Below, one piece after another: positions 7,713 to 44,105 of a stretch of DNA of 44,105 nt (the stretch's first letter is position 1; each line of letters starts with the position of its first letter). A model generated the notes under the pieces. It had not been told where the DNA came from. It was given only the letters and a program-made list of their open reading frames with translations, and searched no databases. The translations under genes and the position numbers were made by a program. This DNA comes from Candidatus Omnitrophota bacterium (GTDB taxonomy: Bacteria > Omnitrophota > Gorgyraeia > Zapsychrales > Fredricksoniimonadaceae), in contig JADFXW010000002.1 of the NCBI GenBank assembly GCA_015233375.1, positions 1-44,105 on the forward strand, given 5' to 3'.

Positions 7713-8821
7713 TAATGATGATTCCTAAAGAAAGCGCGACACGCGTCAATGACGAAACCTGCCTTCTCAACACTCATAAACGAAGGCAAGGGAAGATGTA
7801 GGGCTTGGGTAAAATATTTATCACTCACCTTAAATTGTTTTTTATTTAATCTCTTAAAAGCGGACATTTGGTGAAGGGGCACATAAGGCTTTTGAACCGT
7901 AATCCCTTTCTCTTTTAGAAACCATGACAATTTGTCTCTTTGAGAACAAAAAACCACAAAATTCTGCGCCACACTTTCTGTCAGAGGCTTATCTTTAAAA
8001 AAAGTCAACCCTTTAATGCCCTCAAGGCCTTGCTCATACAACGCCTTTATTTGATGACGGGATTGAATAATCTCAGGCAAATGCTTCCACTTGACCTCTA
8101 AGGCCATCAGATCCATAAAAGAAAGGGGCGCAAATCTCTGGCCCAGGCTTAAAAGATCCTCATCATCACGCCAATCCTCCTGCCAACGCCGGATTTGAGT
8201 ACCCTGTTGTTTATCACACACAACCATTCCCCCGCCACCCGCGCAAGATGAAAGAGGCTTATAATAAGAAAAAGAAAACACCGACATGTCCCCGAAACTT
8301 CCCAACATGCAGCCTTTATAACGCGAACTTTCTGCCTGGCAAACATCTTCAATAAAAACAATCCCCTTGCCCTTACATATTTTTTTGATAGCCTCCACAT
8401 CACAAGGCCGGCCAAACATATGAGCGCCAATCACTGCTTTTGTTTTTTTGGTTATAGCTAACCTTAGCAGCTGCGGGTCTATTTGGAGATCGTCAGCCCT
8501 GGCGTCAACAGGCACAGGCTTTGCCCCGCAATAAAAAACCGCTAAGGCAACCGCCTGATAGGTCAAATCAGGGACAATCACTTCATCCCCTTTTTTAACA
8601 CCAGCCAAAAGCAAGGCTATTTTCAAGGCGTCACTGCCCGAATTAACAGAAACCGCCTCTTTGACACCAATATACCTGGCAAAAGACCTTTCAAACTCAT
8701 AGGTCAGGGGTTTAATATCATTAAGACCACCTACCTTTTTTAGCGTTTTTTCCATCAAAGAGGCATACTCACGGGCAAGGGCCTTTTCTACCAAAATACT
8801 CTCGTATCTTATTTCTGACAT
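7712..8821 (-). CDS. DegT/DnrJ/EryC1/StrS-family PLP-dependent sugar aminotransferase
   Basis: SGSDALKIALLLAGVKKGDEVIVPDLTY, and FSFSYYKPLSS as the candidate PLP-lysine region. A strong SD (AAGGGGGAG) precedes the ATG. Confidence 0.85.
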   Translation of the reverse strand: MSEIRYESILVEKALAREYASLMEKTLKKVGGLNDIKPLTYEFERSFARYIGVKEAVSVNSGSDALKIALLLAGVKKGDEVIVPDLTYQAVALAVFYCGAKPVPVDARADDLQIDPQLLRLAITKKTKAVIGAHMFGRPCDVEAIKKICKGKGIVFIEDVCQAESSRYKGCMLGSFGDMSVFSFSYYKPLSSCAGGGGMVVCDKQQGTQIRRWQEDWRDDEDLLSLGQRFAPLSFMDLMALEVKWKHLPEIIQSRHQIKALYEQGLEGIKGLTFFKDKPLTESVAQNFVVFCSQRDKLSWFLKEKGITVQKPYVPLHQMSAFKRLNKKQFKVSDKYFTQALHLPLPSFMSVEKAGFVIDACRAFFRNHH

Positions 8822-8827
8822 TATTTC

Positions 8828-8876
8828 GAACTCCCCCTTGCCCCCCTCTTTAATCGCTTCGCAAAGAGGGGGAACT
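8828..8876 (-). repeat. Hairpin plus G-rich (SD-like) unit, copy 1 of 2
   Basis: The minus strand reads TTCCCCCTCTTT-gcgaagcgatt-AAAGAGGGGG-gc-AAGGGGGAGTTC. The same architecture occurs at 37905..37944 on the plus strand. Both copies lie immediately 3' of a stop codon in the direction of transcription. Confidence 0.7.
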
Positions 8877-8877
8877 A

Positions 8878-9888
8878 TTAATTGTAAAGAATCAGCATTT
8901 TTCTATCTATCTGCTCAATCTGTTCACATAACTCAATATAACTATTCACTCTTGACTTATAACACGAACCTGCTTTTGTTTCAACAGCCTTACGGGCGTT
9001 AAAATTGCTGACAGCCCTGTAACTGGATTGTGGATTTCTTGCAATAAAATTGCTTAAATCTGTAAAATATGATTTTGCCCCTTTTAAAAATTGCCCTGAA
9101 GGGCCTAAACCAAAATCCATCAAATAAAAGTCTTTTCGGACCTCTTCTGGAAACGATAATAATACCCAATTCCCAAGAACCTTGCCATTAGGTAAAGCTA
9201 ACATATCCCATATCCCTGTTGAAGGCTTGCTATATCCTCTTCCAATCAAGCCATATCTTTTTTCTTTTAACTCCCAAAGAGAAGACTCTCGATACAGGTC
9301 TAAGAATATTTTGGATGCTGATTTATCCCAATTTTCAAGGAAGGCAGGATGTACTTCAATAGACCTTAAACCAATGCTCGCCAAATATTTTAAATTTTCA
9401 AAAAGATTATCTACGGATTGGGGCCGAACTGTCATAGTCGCTGTCAATGGGCCTTTTGAGGACACCGCCAGATTAACCCCATGGACAATATCATCGAAAT
9501 CCCCGCCTTCAATGCCCGGCCTGTTTTTTATCGTGGTATCCTTTTTTCCATCAATCCCCACCTCAAGATTAATCCCGTTATCCAAAAAAAACTTCATCAA
9601 ATTATTATTTAATAAGGTCGCATTCGTTTGAACAGAAATATACCTGTCCAGCTTCTCATTCTTTATCCTTGTAATCATTTCACGAAGTAAATCAGCCTCT
9701 ATCAGAGGTTCCCCTCCTGAGAAAATAAATTCCAGAGGTGCTTGAGAACGAACAAATTCAAGGATATGTTTAAAAATACCGATATCCATGACTTCTTGGC
9801 GCGTACGGTGTTTGTAAAAACAATATCCGCAACCCAAATTGCAGCGGTCCGTGAAAAAAAGCCAGACGTGATTGATTTTATTGATCAT
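8878..9888 (-). CDS. Radical SAM protein, anSME-like N-terminus, no obvious SPASM cluster
   Basis: FTDRCNLGCGYCFYKH carries CX3CX2C in the CNLxCxYCF context typical of anSME/SPASM-family maturases, but the C-terminal half has few Cys. Tandem paralog of 9878..10915. Confidence 0.8.
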   Translation of the reverse strand: MINKINHVWLFFTDRCNLGCGYCFYKHRTRQEVMDIGIFKHILEFVRSQAPLEFIFSGGEPLIEADLLREMITRIKNEKLDRYISVQTNATLLNNNLMKFFLDNGINLEVGIDGKKDTTIKNRPGIEGGDFDDIVHGVNLAVSSKGPLTATMTVRPQSVDNLFENLKYLASIGLRSIEVHPAFLENWDKSASKIFLDLYRESSLWELKEKRYGLIGRGYSKPSTGIWDMLALPNGKVLGNWVLLSFPEEVRKDFYLMDFGLGPSGQFLKGAKSYFTDLSNFIARNPQSSYRAVSNFNARKAVETKAGSCYKSRVNSYIELCEQIEQIDRKMLILYN

Positions 9889-10915
9889 TTTTTATACAAA
9901 TCTTCACATGCGCACGTTGTAAAAATTTTAAAATATTATTGATGGCCCCGGCATTCAAATAAGCATAGCCCATCATTTTGTTGACCAACTTAAAATGATG
10001 CATCACAAATTCACGATAGGTCAAATAAGGACGGCCGTTATATAACCGCTTATACGCCTCCTGATAAAAAGACAATACTTCCTGTCGTATCTGGCCTGTT
10101 TTAATGTCCCAAATGCTAAACTCCTGGCGTTTATTTTCCGGTAAACATAAAAATGGATCTCCTGCCAACAGATGACCTGGTGGATGAAGGCTTAAATCCA
10201 TGTCTCCTGGACGTATCATTTCCTTGTCTTCTTGTGCATACATCAAAGAGCGTAAATCTTTATTTTTCAAGATAGCTAAATAATTCCGTTTAAAACATGC
10301 TTGGGCATCTTTGTCCCAAGTCATAAAAGCAGCAGGCGTCACATCCATATGAGGAAATCCTAAATCCTTCAAAAATGTTACCCCCTCCCTGATGCGCGAC
10401 GCTTCACGAGGATGCACCGTCATGGTCGTGCCACAGGCAAGATCCGCCTTCATACACTCTTTAATGTTATCAGTTAATCTGTTAAATGTGTCTGGCTTTA
10501 ATCCACGCCTATGCCTTGTCGTGACATCAAAATATCCGTCTATGCCAAATTCAAGGCTTACCTTAAGACTTTTAAGATATTTGATGTCCTTTTTATCAAT
10601 CAACACCCCATTGGTCTGAATATGTAAGGAGGTTTTCTTTAAAAAACGCTTGGCCTTTTCTAAAATTTGATACAGCAGGTCCTTGGCTAAAAATGGTTCT
10701 CCGCCGCTAAGAATTAAAGTGGAAGGTTCTGTTTGGTGATATTTAAATAATGAGAAAAACCTGTTAACAGCTTGGAGTGAAATGTCCTTCAAACCCTTGT
10801 GGCGAAAAAAACAATAATCACAGTGCAGATTGCAGCGCTCTGTCACATAAATCCAGGCATAATGGACTTTAATTCTATTGTTTTCTCGCGTCGATAAAAT
10901 ACCTGATTTTGCCAT
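9878..10915 (-). CDS. Radical SAM protein, anSME-like N-terminus, no obvious SPASM cluster
   Basis: VTERCNLHCDYCFFRH and GGEPFL. Its 5' end overlaps the upstream gene by 41 nt if the only in-frame ATG is used. Confidence 0.8.
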   Translation of the reverse strand: MAKSGILSTRENNRIKVHYAWIYVTERCNLHCDYCFFRHKGLKDISLQAVNRFFSLFKYHQTEPSTLILSGGEPFLAKDLLYQILEKAKRFLKKTSLHIQTNGVLIDKKDIKYLKSLKVSLEFGIDGYFDVTTRHRRGLKPDTFNRLTDNIKECMKADLACGTTMTVHPREASRIREGVTFLKDLGFPHMDVTPAAFMTWDKDAQACFKRNYLAILKNKDLRSLMYAQEDKEMIRPGDMDLSLHPPGHLLAGDPFLCLPENKRQEFSIWDIKTGQIRQEVLSFYQEAYKRLYNGRPYLTYREFVMHHFKLVNKMMGYAYLNAGAINNILKFLQRAHVKICIKNDQ

Positions 10916-16072: not shown

Positions 16073-16143
16073 TTAAACTCCATAATAGATACCCCGCCTT
16101 AACAAACATGGTTCTGATTATCTTTTAATTCACGCATGGCGTG

Positions 16144-16323
16144 TTTATAGACACATTGAAAGTTCTTTTAGAAACATTAAGGGATTTTTCGCCAAAAGTC
16201 GTCAAGGTTTTGCGCCCATTGTTTTCTAAAGCATCCTTAGTATATTTGGAAAACAATGGGCGCAAACCGTAGACGACGGCGAAAATATCCCGTTTCTAAA
16301 AGAACTTTCAATGTGTCTATAAA
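16144..16323. repeat. Long palindromic intergenic element E1 (subfamily I)
   Basis: TTTATAGACACATTGAAAGTTCTTTTAGAAAC...loop CTAAAGCATCCTTAGTATATTTGG...GTTTCTAAAAGAACTTTCAATGTGTCTATAAA. The outer and innermost stems are perfect; the mid-stem has conserved bulges. Homologous to E2 (33979..34160). Confidence 0.9.
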
Positions 16324-16331
16324 CCTCGCTC

Positions 16332-31109: not shown

Positions 31110-32123
31110 ATGAAAATATTATTAGTCGGATACCACAATCCTCATTTTACCAACACCATGGTCTGGCGTGAAAAGGCCGTTGAATATTTAGGCCATGAGC
31201 TGTTAACCTTTGATGACAGGAGTTTTTTGTTCCCAGGCCGTCTGAGGGATAAAAGCCCGTTTTTACATCAATGGGATTTGGAGCGACTCAATAAGTCTCT
31301 GGTCCAATTTGTTGATAAACATTCACCTGATATTTGCTTAATAGTTGGGGGACAGAGAATTTTATCTTCTTCGGTTATTGAAATCAAGAAAAGAGGGATA
31401 TGGACAGCGTTATGGACATCAGATGTCCCTATCGATTTCAAGAATATTTTACAGGCAGCCCCTTTTTATGATCATTTATTTTGCGCGGGGAGTGAGGCTG
31501 TTGATATTTTTCATAAGGAAGGATATCGTCAAGTGACCTGGTTGCCGTTTGCATGCGATCAGAATTTTCATAAGCCTTTTTCTTTAACAGGTAAAGAAGC
31601 CAAGGCCTATGGAAGGGACCTTGTGTTTGTAGGGTCCTATTATCCTAACCGCGCCAAGACCCTGGAGTCGCTAGCGGCTTTTGATATAGGTGTTTGGGGG
31701 CCGTATTGGTCAAAATTATCATTTGATTCTAAACTGAAATTAAAAGCAGTAGACGTTAAAATGAATTTTGACCAATGGGTCAAGATTTATAGCGCCTCCA
31801 AGATTTGTGTGGTCATTCATTATCAAGACGAAAATTGCCTCTGCCATCAGATAAGTCCGAAGGTCTTTGAAGCCATGGCTTGTGGATGTTTTGTCTTAAC
31901 AGACAGGCAAAAGGATGCCTCGAAGGTGTTTCAAGATAAAGAACATCTTGTGTTTTTTGATAACGAGTCTGATCTCTGCCAAAAAGCCCAGTATTATTTA
32001 GATAACGATGAGAAGCGAAGGCAAATAGCGCGGGATGCACAAGCTTTTGTGTTGGCCTCTCACCGATATCAGGATAGGATTAAAAAAATTTTAGACACTT
32101 TTCAAGGGAAGGTGGGGTTATGA
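31110..32123 (+). CDS. CgeB-family glycosyltransferase (Glyco_trans_1_2-like C-domain)
   Basis: ISPKVFEAMACGCFVLTD and KEHLVFFDNESDL..YYL.NDEKRRQIA are typical of the CgeB/DUF3880 family. Confidence 0.65.
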   Translation: MKILLVGYHNPHFTNTMVWREKAVEYLGHELLTFDDRSFLFPGRLRDKSPFLHQWDLERLNKSLVQFVDKHSPDICLIVGGQRILSSSVIEIKKRGIWTALWTSDVPIDFKNILQAAPFYDHLFCAGSEAVDIFHKEGYRQVTWLPFACDQNFHKPFSLTGKEAKAYGRDLVFVGSYYPNRAKTLESLAAFDIGVWGPYWSKLSFDSKLKLKAVDVKMNFDQWVKIYSASKICVVIHYQDENCLCHQISPKVFEAMACGCFVLTDRQKDASKVFQDKEHLVFFDNESDLCQKAQYYLDNDEKRRQIARDAQAFVLASHRYQDRIKKILDTFQGKVGL

Positions 32124-32848
32124 GCGACTGTCGAAAAAAGCTGTTTGACGCGTATCATGAGGCTGTTTATAAACAAAGTAATTCCTTAACCCAAGAACAG
32201 TTTGAATGGGCTTGTGGGACATTTGAACATGAGTGGGGAGGCTTTATCCCAGAGACTAAAGATGCGGTTATCCTTGATTTTGGTTGTGGGGTCGGGGATT
32301 TCTTATATTATTTGAAGAAAAACGGATACACCAACTTTTATGGTATTGATACTTCTGCTGGGCAGATTGAGTATTGCAGGCTTAAGGTCAGTGATAAGGC
32401 CCAAGTTATTGACGGAAGAGAGTTTCTTAAAGACAAGGCAGGCATTTATGATTTTATCATGGTTAAGGATGTCTTGGAGCATATACCTAAGAATGAGGTT
32501 ATTGAACTTCTTGGGTTGCTGCATCAAGCCCTTAAAGCTCACGGTAAACTTGTAATCCGTGTGCCGAATATGAGTAATCCTTTTGGATTAGACGCTCGTT
32601 TCAATGATTTTACCCATGAAACAGGTTTTACCTCAAAGAGCCTTAATCAGGTGTTGATTACCGCTGGATTTACTGATGTGCAGATCCTGCCAGACCAAAA
32701 AATGGTTATCCGTTCTTTTAAAAATTGGATACGGAGCATCTTGGTCTGGAAGTTACGTCATTTGATCCGTTTTTGTTATTACATCCAAGATTACACCGTA
32801 CCCAATAATTTGGATAAAAACATTGTTGCTGTGAGTATCAAATCATGA
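32120..32848 (+). CDS. Class I SAM-dependent methyltransferase
   Basis: ILDFGCGVGDF is motif I. VKDVLEHI is the post-motif II/III region. Confidence 0.85.
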   Translation: MSDCRKKLFDAYHEAVYKQSNSLTQEQFEWACGTFEHEWGGFIPETKDAVILDFGCGVGDFLYYLKKNGYTNFYGIDTSAGQIEYCRLKVSDKAQVIDGREFLKDKAGIYDFIMVKDVLEHIPKNEVIELLGLLHQALKAHGKLVIRVPNMSNPFGLDARFNDFTHETGFTSKSLNQVLITAGFTDVQILPDQKMVIRSFKNWIRSILVWKLRHLIRFCYYIQDYTVPNNLDKNIVAVSIKS

Positions 32849-33933
32849 GTCCAACTGTCAAAAAAATTAAGGTTTTACATTTATTGGAATGGTGTGAGTT
32901 GGGCGGCGGCCTTGAAATCATGACCAAGGAGATTGTTTGTGGTTTAGACAAAGAAAAATTTGAGGTGGAGGTATGGTGCTTGTACCGTGGCGGGCTCATG
33001 GCTGAAGAAATCCATCAACAGGGCCTCCCTGTCCGCGTTTTGAATATTTCGACTTACCATAATCCATGTAATATCCTTAAATTAATTTATTTATTTAAAG
33101 AAGCAAGGCCGGATATTATTCATACTCATGTGTATTTTGCTTCTACGATAGGCAGAATCGCTGCCAAATTAGCAGGGGTTAAGGTGTGTATTAATCATGT
33201 CCATAGTTCCTATTGGCATTATTCTAAATGGAACCTGATGATTGAGCGGGTTTTGAGTGTGTGGACGGAAAAGATAATTTGTGTTTCTCAAAGCGTGCGT
33301 GATTTTGTGGTTCAGTATGAGAAGATCCCTTCATCCAAAGTCTTGGTTATCTATAACGGTATTACACGCAAAGAAATCAATAGCCAACCCAATCATGATT
33401 TTATTGTCACCATTGTGGCCAGTTTATTTGCTAACAAAGGCCATCGGGTCTTATTAGAGGCTATAGCTTCCTTAAAAAACAAACATCCGTCTTTAAAATG
33501 TTGGATGGTGGGTGAAGGACAAGAGGGGCTTGGTTTAAGAGCGCTTTGTGAAGAGTTGGGTATTGTAGACAGGGTTGTTTTTTGGGGGGTTCGCTGGGAT
33601 ATTCCAGAGATTTTAGCCCAAAGCCAGTTGTTTGTCTTGACTTCCACCCAAAGGGAAGGGTTAGGGGTCGCTATTCTAGAGGCTATGGCTTATGGCCTGC
33701 CGGTCATTGCAAGCCGTGTGGGAGGTATTCCTGAGATAATTGAGGACGGAAAGAATGGATGCTTGGTCCCTCCAGGGGATTCTCAAAAGTTAGCGGAATG
33801 TATTGATAGGCTGATCCAAAACACAGATGAGCGCCAACGTCTGGCATCAGCAGGCAGGCAAACATTTGAAGAACGTTTTCAGGCTAAATACATGATTGAA
33901 AAGATTCAAGAACTGTATTTATCGGCAATTTAA
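32845..33933 (+). CDS. GT4 glycosyltransferase
   Basis: REGLGVAILEAMAYGLPVIASRVGGIPEII. The TAA stop codon is the first three bases of a conserved junction motif. Confidence 0.85.
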   Translation: MSPTVKKIKVLHLLEWCELGGGLEIMTKEIVCGLDKEKFEVEVWCLYRGGLMAEEIHQQGLPVRVLNISTYHNPCNILKLIYLFKEARPDIIHTHVYFASTIGRIAAKLAGVKVCINHVHSSYWHYSKWNLMIERVLSVWTEKIICVSQSVRDFVVQYEKIPSSKVLVIYNGITRKEINSQPNHDFIVTIVASLFANKGHRVLLEAIASLKNKHPSLKCWMVGEGQEGLGLRALCEELGIVDRVVFWGVRWDIPEILAQSQLFVLTSTQREGLGVAILEAMAYGLPVIASRVGGIPEIIEDGKNGCLVPPGDSQKLAECIDRLIQNTDERQRLASAGRQTFEERFQAKYMIEKIQELYLSAI

Positions 33934-33978
33934 CTTACGCGAGAACTTCATGTTTGTTACGGCGTGGATTATAGTGAG

Positions 33979-34160
33979 GTTTATGGACGCTGTAAAAGTT
34001 TTTTCCGAAACGGGATATTTTCGCCGTCATCTACGGTTTGCAACAATTGTTTTCTAAAGTATGCTTAGTATATTTGGAAAACAATTGTTGCAAAACCTTG
34101 ACGACTTTTGGCGAAAAATCCCTTAATGTTTCGGAAAAAACTTTTACAGCGTCCATAAAC
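33979..34160. repeat. Long palindromic intergenic element E2 (subfamily I)
   Basis: GTTTATGGACGCTGTAAAAGTTTTTTCCGAAAC...loop CTAAAGTATGCTTAGTATATTTGG...GTTTCGGAAAAAACTTTTACAGCGTCCATAAAC. Its core is homologous to the reverse complement of E1. Confidence 0.9.
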
Positions 34161-34182
34161 CTGCATCACGTGGATGGAAAGA

Positions 34183-34290
34183 AAATTGGCTCTTTGAAAT
34201 TTTGAATGGGTAGCAAAGCTTAATCTTACGCGAGGCCAAGCCACCCGCTAATCTATACCATTCCTACCCATTCAAAATTCAAAAGAATCA
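34183..34290 (+). repeat. Mosaic repeat unit: T-motif hairpin enclosing junction motifs ('empty' copy)
   Basis: CTTTGAAATTTTGAATGGGTAG ... CTACCCATTCAAAATTCAAAAG form a 22-nt stem. Positions 34183-34260 are near-identical to 43907-44105, except that the latter carries an extra GC-rich hairpin. Confidence 0.85.
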
Positions 34291-34317
34291 GAAAATTAGA
34301 TAAGGACGAAGAATTTT

Positions 34318-35043
34318 ATGAGATATGGAATTATTTCAGATATTCACTCCAACCTGGAAGCTTTTGAGGCAGTGATGACTGAATGTCGTCAGTTAAAAAT
34401 AGAGACCTTGTTATGTTGCGGGGATATTGTGGGCTATGGAGCTGATCCCAAAGCTTGTATTCATTTGGTCAAAAAAGGGAACATAGTTTCTGTTGCTGGT
34501 AACCATGATTGGGCGGTGTCAGGACGGCTTGACTTTTCTTATTTTACTCCCAATGGCCAGGCTGCGGTCTTATGGACCAGATCGCAACTGGGTATGGAAG
34601 ATATGATTTATTTAAACAATCTGCCTTCATGGCTGAAGAACAAAGACTGTACCCTTGTCCATGGGACCTTGCAATCACCGGGCCAGTTTACTTATTTGAC
34701 CAACATTGAGAAAGCCTCCCAAACCTTTGCCCTTATGGAAAACAAGGTGTGTTTTGTAGGGCATACCCATGTGCCTCAAGTGTATATCGAGCGTGAGGGG
34801 AGGATTTATTCGAGTGATATTTTAGATATTGATATTCAACCTGATTGCAGATATATCATTAATGTGGGAAGTGTCGGACAGCCGAGGGACAGGAATCCTT
34901 TGGCCAGTTTTTGTGTTTATGATACCCAATTAGAGATGATTGAAAATCACAGGGTCCCTTATGATATTGAAAGGGCCCAACAGAAAATATTAGAGGCAGG
35001 TTTGCCTCAAGCCTTGGGCCTGCGTTTAAGAGAGGGACGATAA
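34318..35043 (+). CDS. Metallophosphoesterase (YfcE/MJ0936-like)
   Basis: ISDIHSN, CCGDIVGYG, GNHD and GHTH. Confidence 0.85.
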   Translation: MRYGIISDIHSNLEAFEAVMTECRQLKIETLLCCGDIVGYGADPKACIHLVKKGNIVSVAGNHDWAVSGRLDFSYFTPNGQAAVLWTRSQLGMEDMIYLNNLPSWLKNKDCTLVHGTLQSPGQFTYLTNIEKASQTFALMENKVCFVGHTHVPQVYIEREGRIYSSDILDIDIQPDCRYIINVGSVGQPRDRNPLASFCVYDTQLEMIENHRVPYDIERAQQKILEAGLPQALGLRLREGR

Positions 35044-36128: not shown

Positions 36129-36141
36129 TCTATACGCGCGG

Positions 36142-36321
36142 GGCTTGAGGGAGGGCTATTATGTTTTCAGAACAATAAGGGATTTTTGGCCAAATGTTTG
36201 CGAGGGCTTACAATAAATTTTTTCTAAATATACTAAGGATGCTTTAGAAGAAATTTATTGTAAACCGAAGCAAACGGCCAAAATATCCCGTTCAGAAAAC
36301 ATAATAGCCCTCCCTCAAGCC
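36142..36321. repeat. Long palindromic intergenic element E3 (subfamily II, inner segment inverted relative to E4)
   Basis: GGCTTGAGGGAGGGCTATTATGTTTTC...loop CTAAATATACTAAGGATGCTTTAG...GAAAACATAATAGCCCTCCCTCAAGCC. Confidence 0.9.
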
Positions 36322-36365
36322 TTGCGTGATTTACCCAATCAAAATTTTCAACAGAATTCATATAT

Positions 36366-38018: not shown

Positions 38019-38197
38019 GGCTGGCGGGAGGGCTATTATGTTTTCGGAATGGGATATTTTGGCCGTTTGCGTCTGTTACAATAAATTTTTTCTAAAGCAT
38101 CCTTAGTATATTTGGAAAAAATTTATTGTAAATCCTCGCAAACATTTGGCCAAAAATCCCTTATTGTTCCGAAAACATAATAGCCCTCCCGCCAGCC
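38019..38197. repeat. Long palindromic intergenic element E4 (subfamily II)
   Basis: GGCTGGCGGGAGGGCTATTATGTTTTC...loop CTAAAGCATCCTTAGTATATTTGG...GAAAACATAATAGCCCTCCCGCCAGCC. Confidence 0.9.
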
Positions 38198-43906: not shown

Positions 43907-44105
43907 AAATTGTGGCTCTTTGAAATTTTGAATGGGTAGCAAAGCTTAATCTTACGCGGGGCCTGTCTTGGCCGGCGTGTTAACGTGCTCCTCTTGGCGA
44001 ATGGCAACCCTATCAGCGGCCAGAAAGGGGGTTTCCCTTTACCGCTGACTTGGGCACTGGTCGTGCGCTCGTTAACACGCCGGCCAAGACACCCGCTAAT
44101 CTATA
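43907..44105 (+). repeat. Mosaic repeat unit ('filled' copy), truncated by the window end
   Basis: AAATTGTGGCTCTTTGAAATTTTGAATGGGTAGCAAAGCTTAATCTTACGCGGGG ... CACCCGCTAATCTATA matches 34183-34260 on both sides of an inserted hairpin. Confidence 0.85.
43965..44090. repeat. GC-rich 126-nt hairpin nested in the repeat unit
   Basis: A perfect 21-bp outer stem GTCTTGGCCGGCGTGTTAACG / CGTTAACACGCCGGCCAAGAC. An inner hairpin TCAGCGG..AAAGGG-ggttt-CCCTTT..CCGCTGA. Markedly more GC-rich than its surroundings. Confidence 0.8.

Follow-up and report, generated by a model that had tools for sequence, protein, structure and literature searches.

A genus-specific palindromic DNA repeat of Omnitrophota with a conserved bulged box in the middle of its stem

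The DNA analysed here, called the window, is a stretch of 44,105 nt from a Candidatus Omnitrophota bacterium (assembly GCA_015233375.1, contig JADFXW010000002.1, positions 1 to 44,105); among its genes lie four copies, E1 to E4, of a long imperfect palindrome, the element considered below (Table 1). E2 is a 186-nt hairpin with outer arms of 35 nt that are 100% complementary; a glycosyltransferase-like gene (32845-33933) precedes the spacer in which it lies, and the next plus-strand gene (34318-35043) follows. Its RNA folding energy is -112.2 kcal/mol for the plus strand and -108.5 kcal/mol for the minus strand; folded as single-stranded DNA (ssDNA) it reaches -72.8 kcal/mol whichever strand is taken (z about -18 to -19). 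The strand of each copy was assigned from asymmetries between its arms. If the four copies are aligned as they stand, the asymmetries seem to swap arms; with E2 and E4 reverse-complemented, all four fall in register, and the element therefore has an intrinsic orientation. E2 (-), E3 (+) and E4 (-) are all located between plus-strand genes.

A previous sequence-only reading of the window had reported a 4-nt bulge on one arm of all four copies (CGCC-AAAA-GTCGTC in E1 and E2, GGCC-AAAT-GTTTGC in E3 and E4), one extra base on the other arm (GGGATATTTT versus GGGATTTTT), and a 6-bp helix beside the bulge that differs between the subfamilies with both arms changed (GTCGTC/GACGAC versus GTTTGC/GCAAAC). 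We found all three features as described, along with a third, larger asymmetry that had been overlooked: the arm with the 4-nt bulge also carries a bulge of 5 nt (ATTAA/AATAA). The central box of the element, as we would delimit it, runs in the order GAAAC, the bulge A-W-T-M-A, a 13-bp helix (helix 2) with one extrahelical T, and the bulge AAAW.

The genome to which the window belongs is a 1.76-Mb metagenome-assembled genome (MAG) of 209 contigs, 64% complete; all the genomes compared with it are MAGs too. A search with nhmmer found 22 near-full copies in this genome, with scores of 110-185 bits for the better strand of each and 34-101 bits for the other, a difference of about twofold. An exact-pattern scan of species-representative genomes gave 41 loci from 14 MAGs, labelled mostly Candidatus Omnitrophota and in six cases 'uncultured Planctomycetales'. 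By BLAST, 15 of 16 genomes of the same genus contain the element, and 15 genomes representing other genera of the family or order gave no match. No further match appeared in a thin sample of 300 genomes across the phylum, with two candidates scored per genome, or in viral contigs, plasmids and phages; nothing in Rfam was matched at gathering score, the sub-threshold matches being to miRNA-precursor hairpins only, and a literature search found no description of such repeats in Omnitrophota. In a relative, genome G303, there are about 40 copies, 11 of which are 95-100% identical over 205 nt; proliferation there is therefore recent. We characterized the element as a genus-specific, non-coding, proliferating palindromic DNA repeat.

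The pattern used in the first collection of copies required GCCAAANGT and AAAATATCCC, hence counts made on that collection are partly circular for these two features. Among 64 copies parsed by module, all had the 5-nt bulge (ATTCA in 26, ATTAA in 13, AATCA in 9, AATAA in 7, rare variants otherwise) and the extra T, and the 4-nt bulge read AAAW in 62 and AAAG in 2. An unbiased set was built from BLAST matches by gapped alignment with no motif required, and it holds 59 full copies from 15 other species. All three asymmetries were present in 59 of these 59 copies, with the 4-nt bulge reading AAAT in 36, AAAA in 20, AGAT in 2 and AAAG in 1. The sequence-only reading had allowed that the bulges might prove variable in a larger set; they did not. 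Column by column, over 58 copies, the unpaired bases are nearly invariant: the extra T is T in 58 of 58, the 4-nt bulge has A in 58, A in 56, A in 58 and then W, and the 5-nt bulge has A in 54, W, T in 58, M, and A in 54. Across 17 species, namely that of the window and 16 others, none of the 92 unique full copies has lost a bulge.

The stems behave differently in that they covary. In alignment A3 (45 copies, a mixed set) 97.0% of cells are paired and 48 of 69 pairs have changed on both sides; the covariation score is 0.562, compared with 0.146 after shuffling (0 of 500 shuffles reach the observed value) and 0.08-0.10 with slid partners. Alignment A4 (58 copies, unbiased) gave 94.8% paired cells, 53 of 69 pairs changed on both sides, and a score of 0.550 compared with 0.157 (again 0 of 500) and 0.07-0.11. 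Variability is greatest in the outer stem, where 28-29 of 31 pairs changed on both sides, and lowest in the 13-bp helix 2. Even so, 6 of the 13 pairs of helix 2 changed on both sides in the unbiased set; its variants (GGGG…/…CCCC, GGAA…/…TTCC, …TTTC/GAAA…) are always arranged around the unchanged extrahelical T, and covariation extends to the pairs immediately adjoining that T. For the 6-bp helix we saw at least nine perfectly paired variants (GTCTGC, GTTTGC, GTCGTC, GTTGGC, GTCCGC, GTCGGC, GTCTTC, GTCTTG and GTTGGT among them), which argues that pairing itself is maintained. As the unpaired bases are nearly fixed while the pairs of the outer stem have changed repeatedly, the asymmetries must be selected and not merely inherited: all three are under purifying selection.

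The arms also change together very fast. In subfamilies at least 92% identical we counted 63 compensated double changes, with inherited changes counted more than once, against about 1.2 expected for independent mutation at the observed per-site frequency of 3.75%; single changes numbered 65. Slow compensation in two steps does not account for so large an excess where each repeat is dispensable, and on the simplest reading a templated process acting across the hairpin, either repair or synthesis, would keep the arms paired. One could then suppose that there is no selection on the asymmetries at all: they would stem from a founder copy, and since arm-to-arm conversion cannot cross indels the bulges would persist passively. 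The excess of double changes does suggest that a conversion-like process probably exists, and precise indels are rarer than substitutions. Still, the bulge bases are among the most conserved columns while the pairs of the outer stem are saturated with change, and the bulges stayed intact despite double changes directly adjoining them (columns 44/45/50/51 of A4). Shortened forms of the element, moreover, selectively retain the kernel, and we consider a purely passive origin of the conservation highly improbable. A templated process should erase small bulges, yet none has been lost, which suggests that only copies bearing the box persist or spread.

In the short forms, which measure ~105 nt, a deletion between two GGCC/GCCAA repeats has removed the apex together with the 4-nt bulge, and the hairpin closes directly at a palindromic GGCC or GCCAA. 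What is left consists of the outer stem, the 5-nt bulge and helix 2, extra base included. One copy in genome G307 has the box intact below an unrelated GC-rich apex. In E1 the apical ~24 nt (window 16220-16253), CTAAAGCATCCTTAGTATATTTGG, is the reverse complement of the tip found in all other copies; an inverted tip was seen in E1 only, among 75 classifiable copies.

The constraint is most probably exerted at the DNA level. The paired positions comprise 2958 Watson-Crick cells compared with 52 G.T and 26 A.C cells plus one conserved apical C.A, and the wobble fraction (about 1.7% of cells) is very low for an RNA. Strict Watson-Crick pairs make up 95% of paired cells. The two strands are symmetric in folding: by RNA minimum free energy, 33 copies are more stable on the oriented strand and 31 on the opposite one. 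Gene context was available for 92 unique copies. The box points in the same direction as the flanking genes in 31 copies and in the opposite direction in 44 (75 copies), so that in about half of the transcripts the conserved bulges would be present as their complement. G.T cells modestly exceed A.C cells (124 versus 85 unique events, p=0.008), with the same sign in co-oriented (65:35) and anti-oriented (69:52) copies; the excess follows the element, not the direction of transcription. A lone A-C mismatch on the plus strand of E2 had been taken earlier as a weak hint of a minus-strand RNA. The mismatch is real (helix 3 reads GTCATC/GACGAC, a G.T on the minus strand), but the hint fails, as E2 has one wobble per strand (the apical plus-strand T.G is a minus-strand C.A) and the family as a whole shows no strand preference linked to transcription.

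An explanation at the RNA level deserves weighing here, because RNA-level selection on the fold would keep both pairing and bulges. The hairpins, co-transcribed in operons, could be signals for mRNA processing or stability, e.g. substrates of RNase III in which the bulges position or block cleavage. Strong covariation and very stable RNA folds are in line with this, as is the location of 75 copies (75 of the 81 resolvable) between co-directional genes, at a median distance of 48 nt after the stop codon and 70 nt before the start codon. This enrichment is slight, however, because 83-89% of all spacers in the window's genome are already co-directional. Orientation relative to genes is uniform within young subfamilies and differs between them (same:opposite is 0:6 in the genome's own subfamily I, 7:1 in G303 subfamily III and 2:7 in IV; permutation p=0.005), a bias that an RNA signal could account for; on the other hand, a direction that varies by subfamily, with the box more often against the genes than with them, is not what such a signal calls for. 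Nor does the scarcity of wobble pairs, without preference for the transcribed strand, speak for RNA, and there is no match to an Rfam family. The hairpin also lacks a T-run after it, hence the element is not an intrinsic terminator. We regard a function in RNA as unlikely. Bias with respect to replication strand was discarded as an explanation since GC skew is confounded here with gene direction; a strand bias on G303 contigs was accounted for by the subfamily-specific orientation relative to genes.

If the constraint lies in DNA, it could still concern the duplex. The 'bulges' would then be insertions in one arm forming a binding site in double-stranded DNA for a nucleoid protein or transposase cofactor, with pairing kept for an unrelated reason. 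The sequence AATCAGGGATTTT indeed resembles WATCAR-N4-TTR, which we take to be the consensus of integration host factor (IHF). The bulge bases keep their sequence and show no covariation with a candidate pairing partner, orientation relative to transcription is irrelevant, and MITE-like frames of the kind described below (MITE, miniature inverted-repeat transposable element) would be handled as duplex by a DDE transposase. All this would suit a duplex motif, but the commonest variant of the 5-nt bulge, ATTCA, breaks the IHF-like match; the single extra T on the opposite arm and the covariation of neighbouring pairs that preserves helix 2 are left without explanation, and the strong maintenance of pairing needs a separate one. 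We consider the duplex motif quite unlikely. Alternative pairing of the bulges was tried as well, in a 'clover' fold with a T-run and in a contact between bulge and loop, and rejected for lack of covariation with any candidate partner.

The reading we favour is that the repeat is kept as folded ssDNA and that the central box is a protein recognition module needed for propagation; in our judgement it could equally well prove right or wrong. Selection would maintain a folded single-strand form, hairpin or cruciform. The box would most likely be the recognition module of a structure-specific DNA-binding or DNA-cutting protein, which the element would need in order to be copied or kept, while the outer and apical stems would need only to pair. 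A fast, probably templated process (repair or synthesis across the hairpin) may keep the arms complementary, and only copies retaining the box would go on to propagate.

Several observations weigh against this proposal. Copies are not phylogenetically independent, and alignments of the outer stem are imperfect. The bias of orientation within subfamilies makes some link to transcription possible. At least some subfamilies appear to travel in a larger unit, and the box would be superfluous for a DDE transposase that acts on duplex ends. As for a recogniser, no protein family recurs beside the elements, whose neighbours are housekeeping genes (rpoC, rplQ, dnaK, lpxC/lpxD and glycosyltransferases among them). 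None of 22 loci of Y1 (HUH) transposase genes in 14 genomes is bracketed by the box, with at most about 1.5 kb of flank examined and in MAGs. None of 17 genomes of the genus exceeds the TIGR02249 cut-off for integron integrase. Finally, MAGs are incomplete (64% complete in the case of the window's genome), and a partner gene could simply be unassembled.

Thus, of the sequence-only claim that the folded form, as ssDNA or RNA, is recognised by something, the importance of the fold stands, with DNA favoured over RNA; the recogniser itself was not found. The TIGR02249 search returned only generic Xer-like matches, as it did in all 14 control genomes. Fourteen of 17 genomes of the genus have genes of the Y1 family, some IS200-like and some RAYT-like; as none of the 22 loci examined, with at most about 1.5 kb of flank, is bracketed by the box, we rejected RAYT and IS200 as partners. 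One RAYT-like Y1 gene of the window's genome (G000), encoding 227 amino acids with HUH and Y motifs (locus L042, G000:C168:4965-8297, gene 1438-2121), is bracketed by 31-nt inverted repeats AATTTTGGTGACACACGACGTAACCTAAATT that are unrelated to the box and occur nowhere else in the genome; after the gene come tandem GAATTCTGGTGA repeats and, in degenerate and partial form, a second copy of its 5' end. At locus L117 (G307:C7:233692-237057; 1477-2442 and 2489-2666) there are two identical tandem IS200-like copies, each with a TnpA of 142 amino acids and GC-rich subterminal hairpins, and the second copy directly adjoins a diverged hairpin element. A box motif at L120 is inside a coding gene and was dismissed as a chance match. 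An autonomous version with a gene between the arms was also sought among half copies, which turned out to be gene-free internal deletions between short direct repeats. A Xer/dif-like reading of the stems was abandoned, as the similarity is short and the position wrong. Xer-like tyrosine recombinase genes do adjoin elements in two places: on G303:C11 such a gene (9358-10137) lies between a full element (9095-9299) and a short form (10211-10338), and on G302:C10 an element (9404-9535) comes after another such gene (8532-9350). With about 1.3 adjacencies of this kind expected by chance, the observation as it stands is not significant.

By analogy, the element appears most like hairpins recognised as ssDNA (attC sites, REP/REPIN and IS200/IS605 ends), in which one-sided unpaired bases are conserved while sequence drifts. 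The attC site of integrons has an R box, 5'-RYYYAAC-3' / 5'-GTTRRRY-3', at the base of the hairpin, together with extrahelical bases, an unpaired central spacer and a variable terminal structure (PMC5027507). As in attC, structure is conserved over sequence, one-sided unpaired features tell the strands apart, an extrahelical T is conserved (one-sided extrahelical bases being present in all 59 unbiased copies) and the apex is variable; there is also a small G:T excess on one strand, whose unpaired bases are A-rich, and the recombinogenic strand of attC shows the same kind of excess (PMC5027507). The resemblance is one of logic only. The element is about 180 nt long compared with 57-141 bp for attC, and it has a variable ~30-bp stem outside the box; the helix beside the 5-nt bulge reads CGAAAC/GGAAC/GGCAC, with no fit to RYYYAAC, and its AAC triplet is CAC in 21 of 58 copies (A4 column 34). 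Unlike cassette arrays, in which all sites have a single orientation, neighbouring elements point opposite ways (overall, 31 copies lie with the flanking genes and 44 against them), and the elements are scattered through housekeeping operons. With no R-box consensus, no IntI in 17 genomes, mixed orientation and a length of about 180 nt, membership among integron attC sites was rejected.

REPINs are inverted REP doublets mobilised by RAYT Y1 transposases (Bertels & Rainey 2011, PMC3116915), with conserved REP sequences at the two ends and a variable spacer; as ssDNA they form a long hairpin, in which two-sided compensatory changes are common (PMC3116915). The element shares several of these traits: it is non-coding, dispersed, limited to one lineage, forms hairpins with compensatory changes and has near-identical populations within genomes, and Y1-family genes are present in most genomes of its genus. 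Its layout is the inverse, however, with a conserved centre, a hypervariable outer stem and a dispensable apex. No Y1/RAYT gene at the 22 loci examined is flanked by the box, and the RAYT-like gene of the window's genome has repeats of its own; on both grounds, the central and not terminal place of the conserved part and the lack of a box-flanked RAYT gene at these loci, we did not assign the element to REPINs.

IS200/IS605 elements and PATEs, their non-autonomous derivatives, have two different short subterminal hairpins at their ends, and insertion takes place 3' of a fixed tetra- or pentanucleotide without duplication. What the element has in common with them is the idea that an HUH enzyme would read, in ssDNA, an imperfect hairpin containing an extrahelical base, and IS200-like genes do exist in its genus. 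In contrast, the element forms one hairpin of ~180 nt; beside young copies the flanks show a short direct repeat in place of IS605-type ends, and the IS200-like copies seen here carry their own GC-rich hairpins, one merely abutting a diverged element. A single hairpin, central conservation and the lack of a box around any of the 22 Y1 loci examined led us to reject this membership too. The earlier comparison with attC and IS200/IS605 thus holds for the logic of recognition and fails for membership in either group.

Imperfect intergenic palindromes of 100-190 bp, often co-transcribed, present in either orientation and showing compensatory changes, include ERIC/IRU, bcr1, Correia/NEMIS and YPAL. 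Correia and bcr1 are defined by conserved termini and target duplications, ERIC by overall sequence conservation; in the element it is the termini that vary between subfamilies and species and the central bulged box that is fixed. The element belongs to this broad class (ERIC, bcr1, Correia, YPAL) and falls outside the definitions of attC, REPIN and IS200/IS605.

Comparison with G303 shows turnover at the sites of elements. E2 has an orthologue there in the same position and orientation, with an outer stem unrelated to that of E2; the outer stem of E2 matches about eight paralogues in its own genome. At this site either paralogues replace one another or sites get reoccupied. Gene content differs between the two species exactly at element sites (32120-32848 and 34163-34317, compared with G303 contig C30): a G303 hairpin element stands in place of the window's extra gene for 242 amino acids (32120-32848), and beside the E2 orthologue an additional glycosyltransferase gene of G303 occupies the place that a small MITE has in the window. 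The elements of the glycosyltransferase locus sit precisely at these differences. One could speculate that the box is the site of an undiscovered structure-specific ssDNA recombination or transposition system in Omnitrophota, with attC-like logic, in which extrahelical bases would determine strand and site, and a different enzyme. This we hold to be very unlikely; if true, the hairpins would be copied, and perhaps genes exchanged, inside operons.

The small MITE beside E2, a solo 'frame', has a perfect 8-bp target duplication, AGAAAATT, at 34180-34187 and 34290-34297. Subfamily II hairpins sit at the apex of the same frame. Its terminal repeats also bracket a GC-rich hairpin at 43914-44105. 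The classical MITE features, terminal repeats and the 8-bp duplication, belong to the frame; the termini of the hairpins differ between subfamilies, and no clean duplication could be defined for them. The frame repeat is nearly species-specific (9 matches in this genome, 2 in G303, none in 15 other genomes) and no autonomous partner was found for it. An IS6-like partner was considered and rejected, as the genome's IS6-family gene is without matching ends and the repeat is so restricted. In the G303 burst the copies have common flanks, 33 nt on the left and 24 nt on the right; a short direct repeat lies within these flanks, which stop about 23-26 nt ahead of the following start codon. The box is found throughout the genus and its carriers only locally; the hairpin therefore predates each single carrier and is not simply part of one MITE.

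Table 1. Copies of the element, parts of E2, the solo frame and short forms (window coordinates unless a contig or locus is given)
Feature	Position	Strand	Remarks
E1	16143-16324	+	Subfamily I; apical tip (about 24 nt) inverted relative to box
E2	33977-34162	-	Subfamily I; orientation set by asymmetries
E3	36137-36326	+	Subfamily II; compared with E4, box flipped relative to flanks
E4	38019-38197	-	Subfamily II
E2, 5-nt one-sided bulge ATTAA	34123-34127	-	Family consensus A-W-T-M-A; 64/64 parsed and 59/59 unbiased copies
E2, helix 2, 5' arm GGGATTTTTCGCC	34110-34122	-	Nearly invariant 13-bp helix separating the two large bulges
E2, 4-nt one-sided bulge AAAA	34106-34109	-	Family AAAW
E2, helix 3, 5' arm GTCGTC	34100-34105	-	Partner GATGAC at 34026-34031; one G.T
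E2, apical stem and loop	34037-34095	-	Variable; dispensable in short forms
E2, single extrahelical T, 3' arm (GGCGAAAA-T-ATCCC)	34017	-	T in 45/45 and 58/58 copies
E2, helix 2, 3' arm GGCGAAAATATCCC	34012-34025	-	
Solo 'frame', 102-bp MITE	34188-34289	+	~25-bp terminal inverted repeats GGCTCTTTGAAATTTTGAATGGGTA
Short form, window's genome	C154:18925-19035 (18954)		
Short form, window's genome	C135:11150-11260 (11178)		
Short form, window's genome	C99:12085-12200 (12114)		
Short form, G303	L032:2205-2345		One examined; further split matches suggest more

The usual view of long palindromic repeats is that they are selfish DNA in which the ends count. In this element the ends are free to vary and a bulged module in mid-stem is fixed, an arrangement we take to be the signature of a structure-specific reader. 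Such a reader, if identified, would add a protein-DNA recognition system in a phylum without a cultured model and would explain the harmless invasion of tightly packed operons; if no reader exists, the family is another REP/ERIC-like repeat. In either case the collected copies document cleanly, in a natural setting, how very fast compensatory change in DNA hairpins can be.

Two minor observations concern neighbouring sequences. The right flanks of G303 subfamily III copies (L003, L006, L013, L016, L028) end in AATTTTGACAGAAC, with a perfect TTGACA, just before the ribosome-binding site. In the window itself, a cobalamin riboswitch was detected on the minus strand at 1505-1637, barely over the Rfam gathering score (32.3 versus 31.5 bits).

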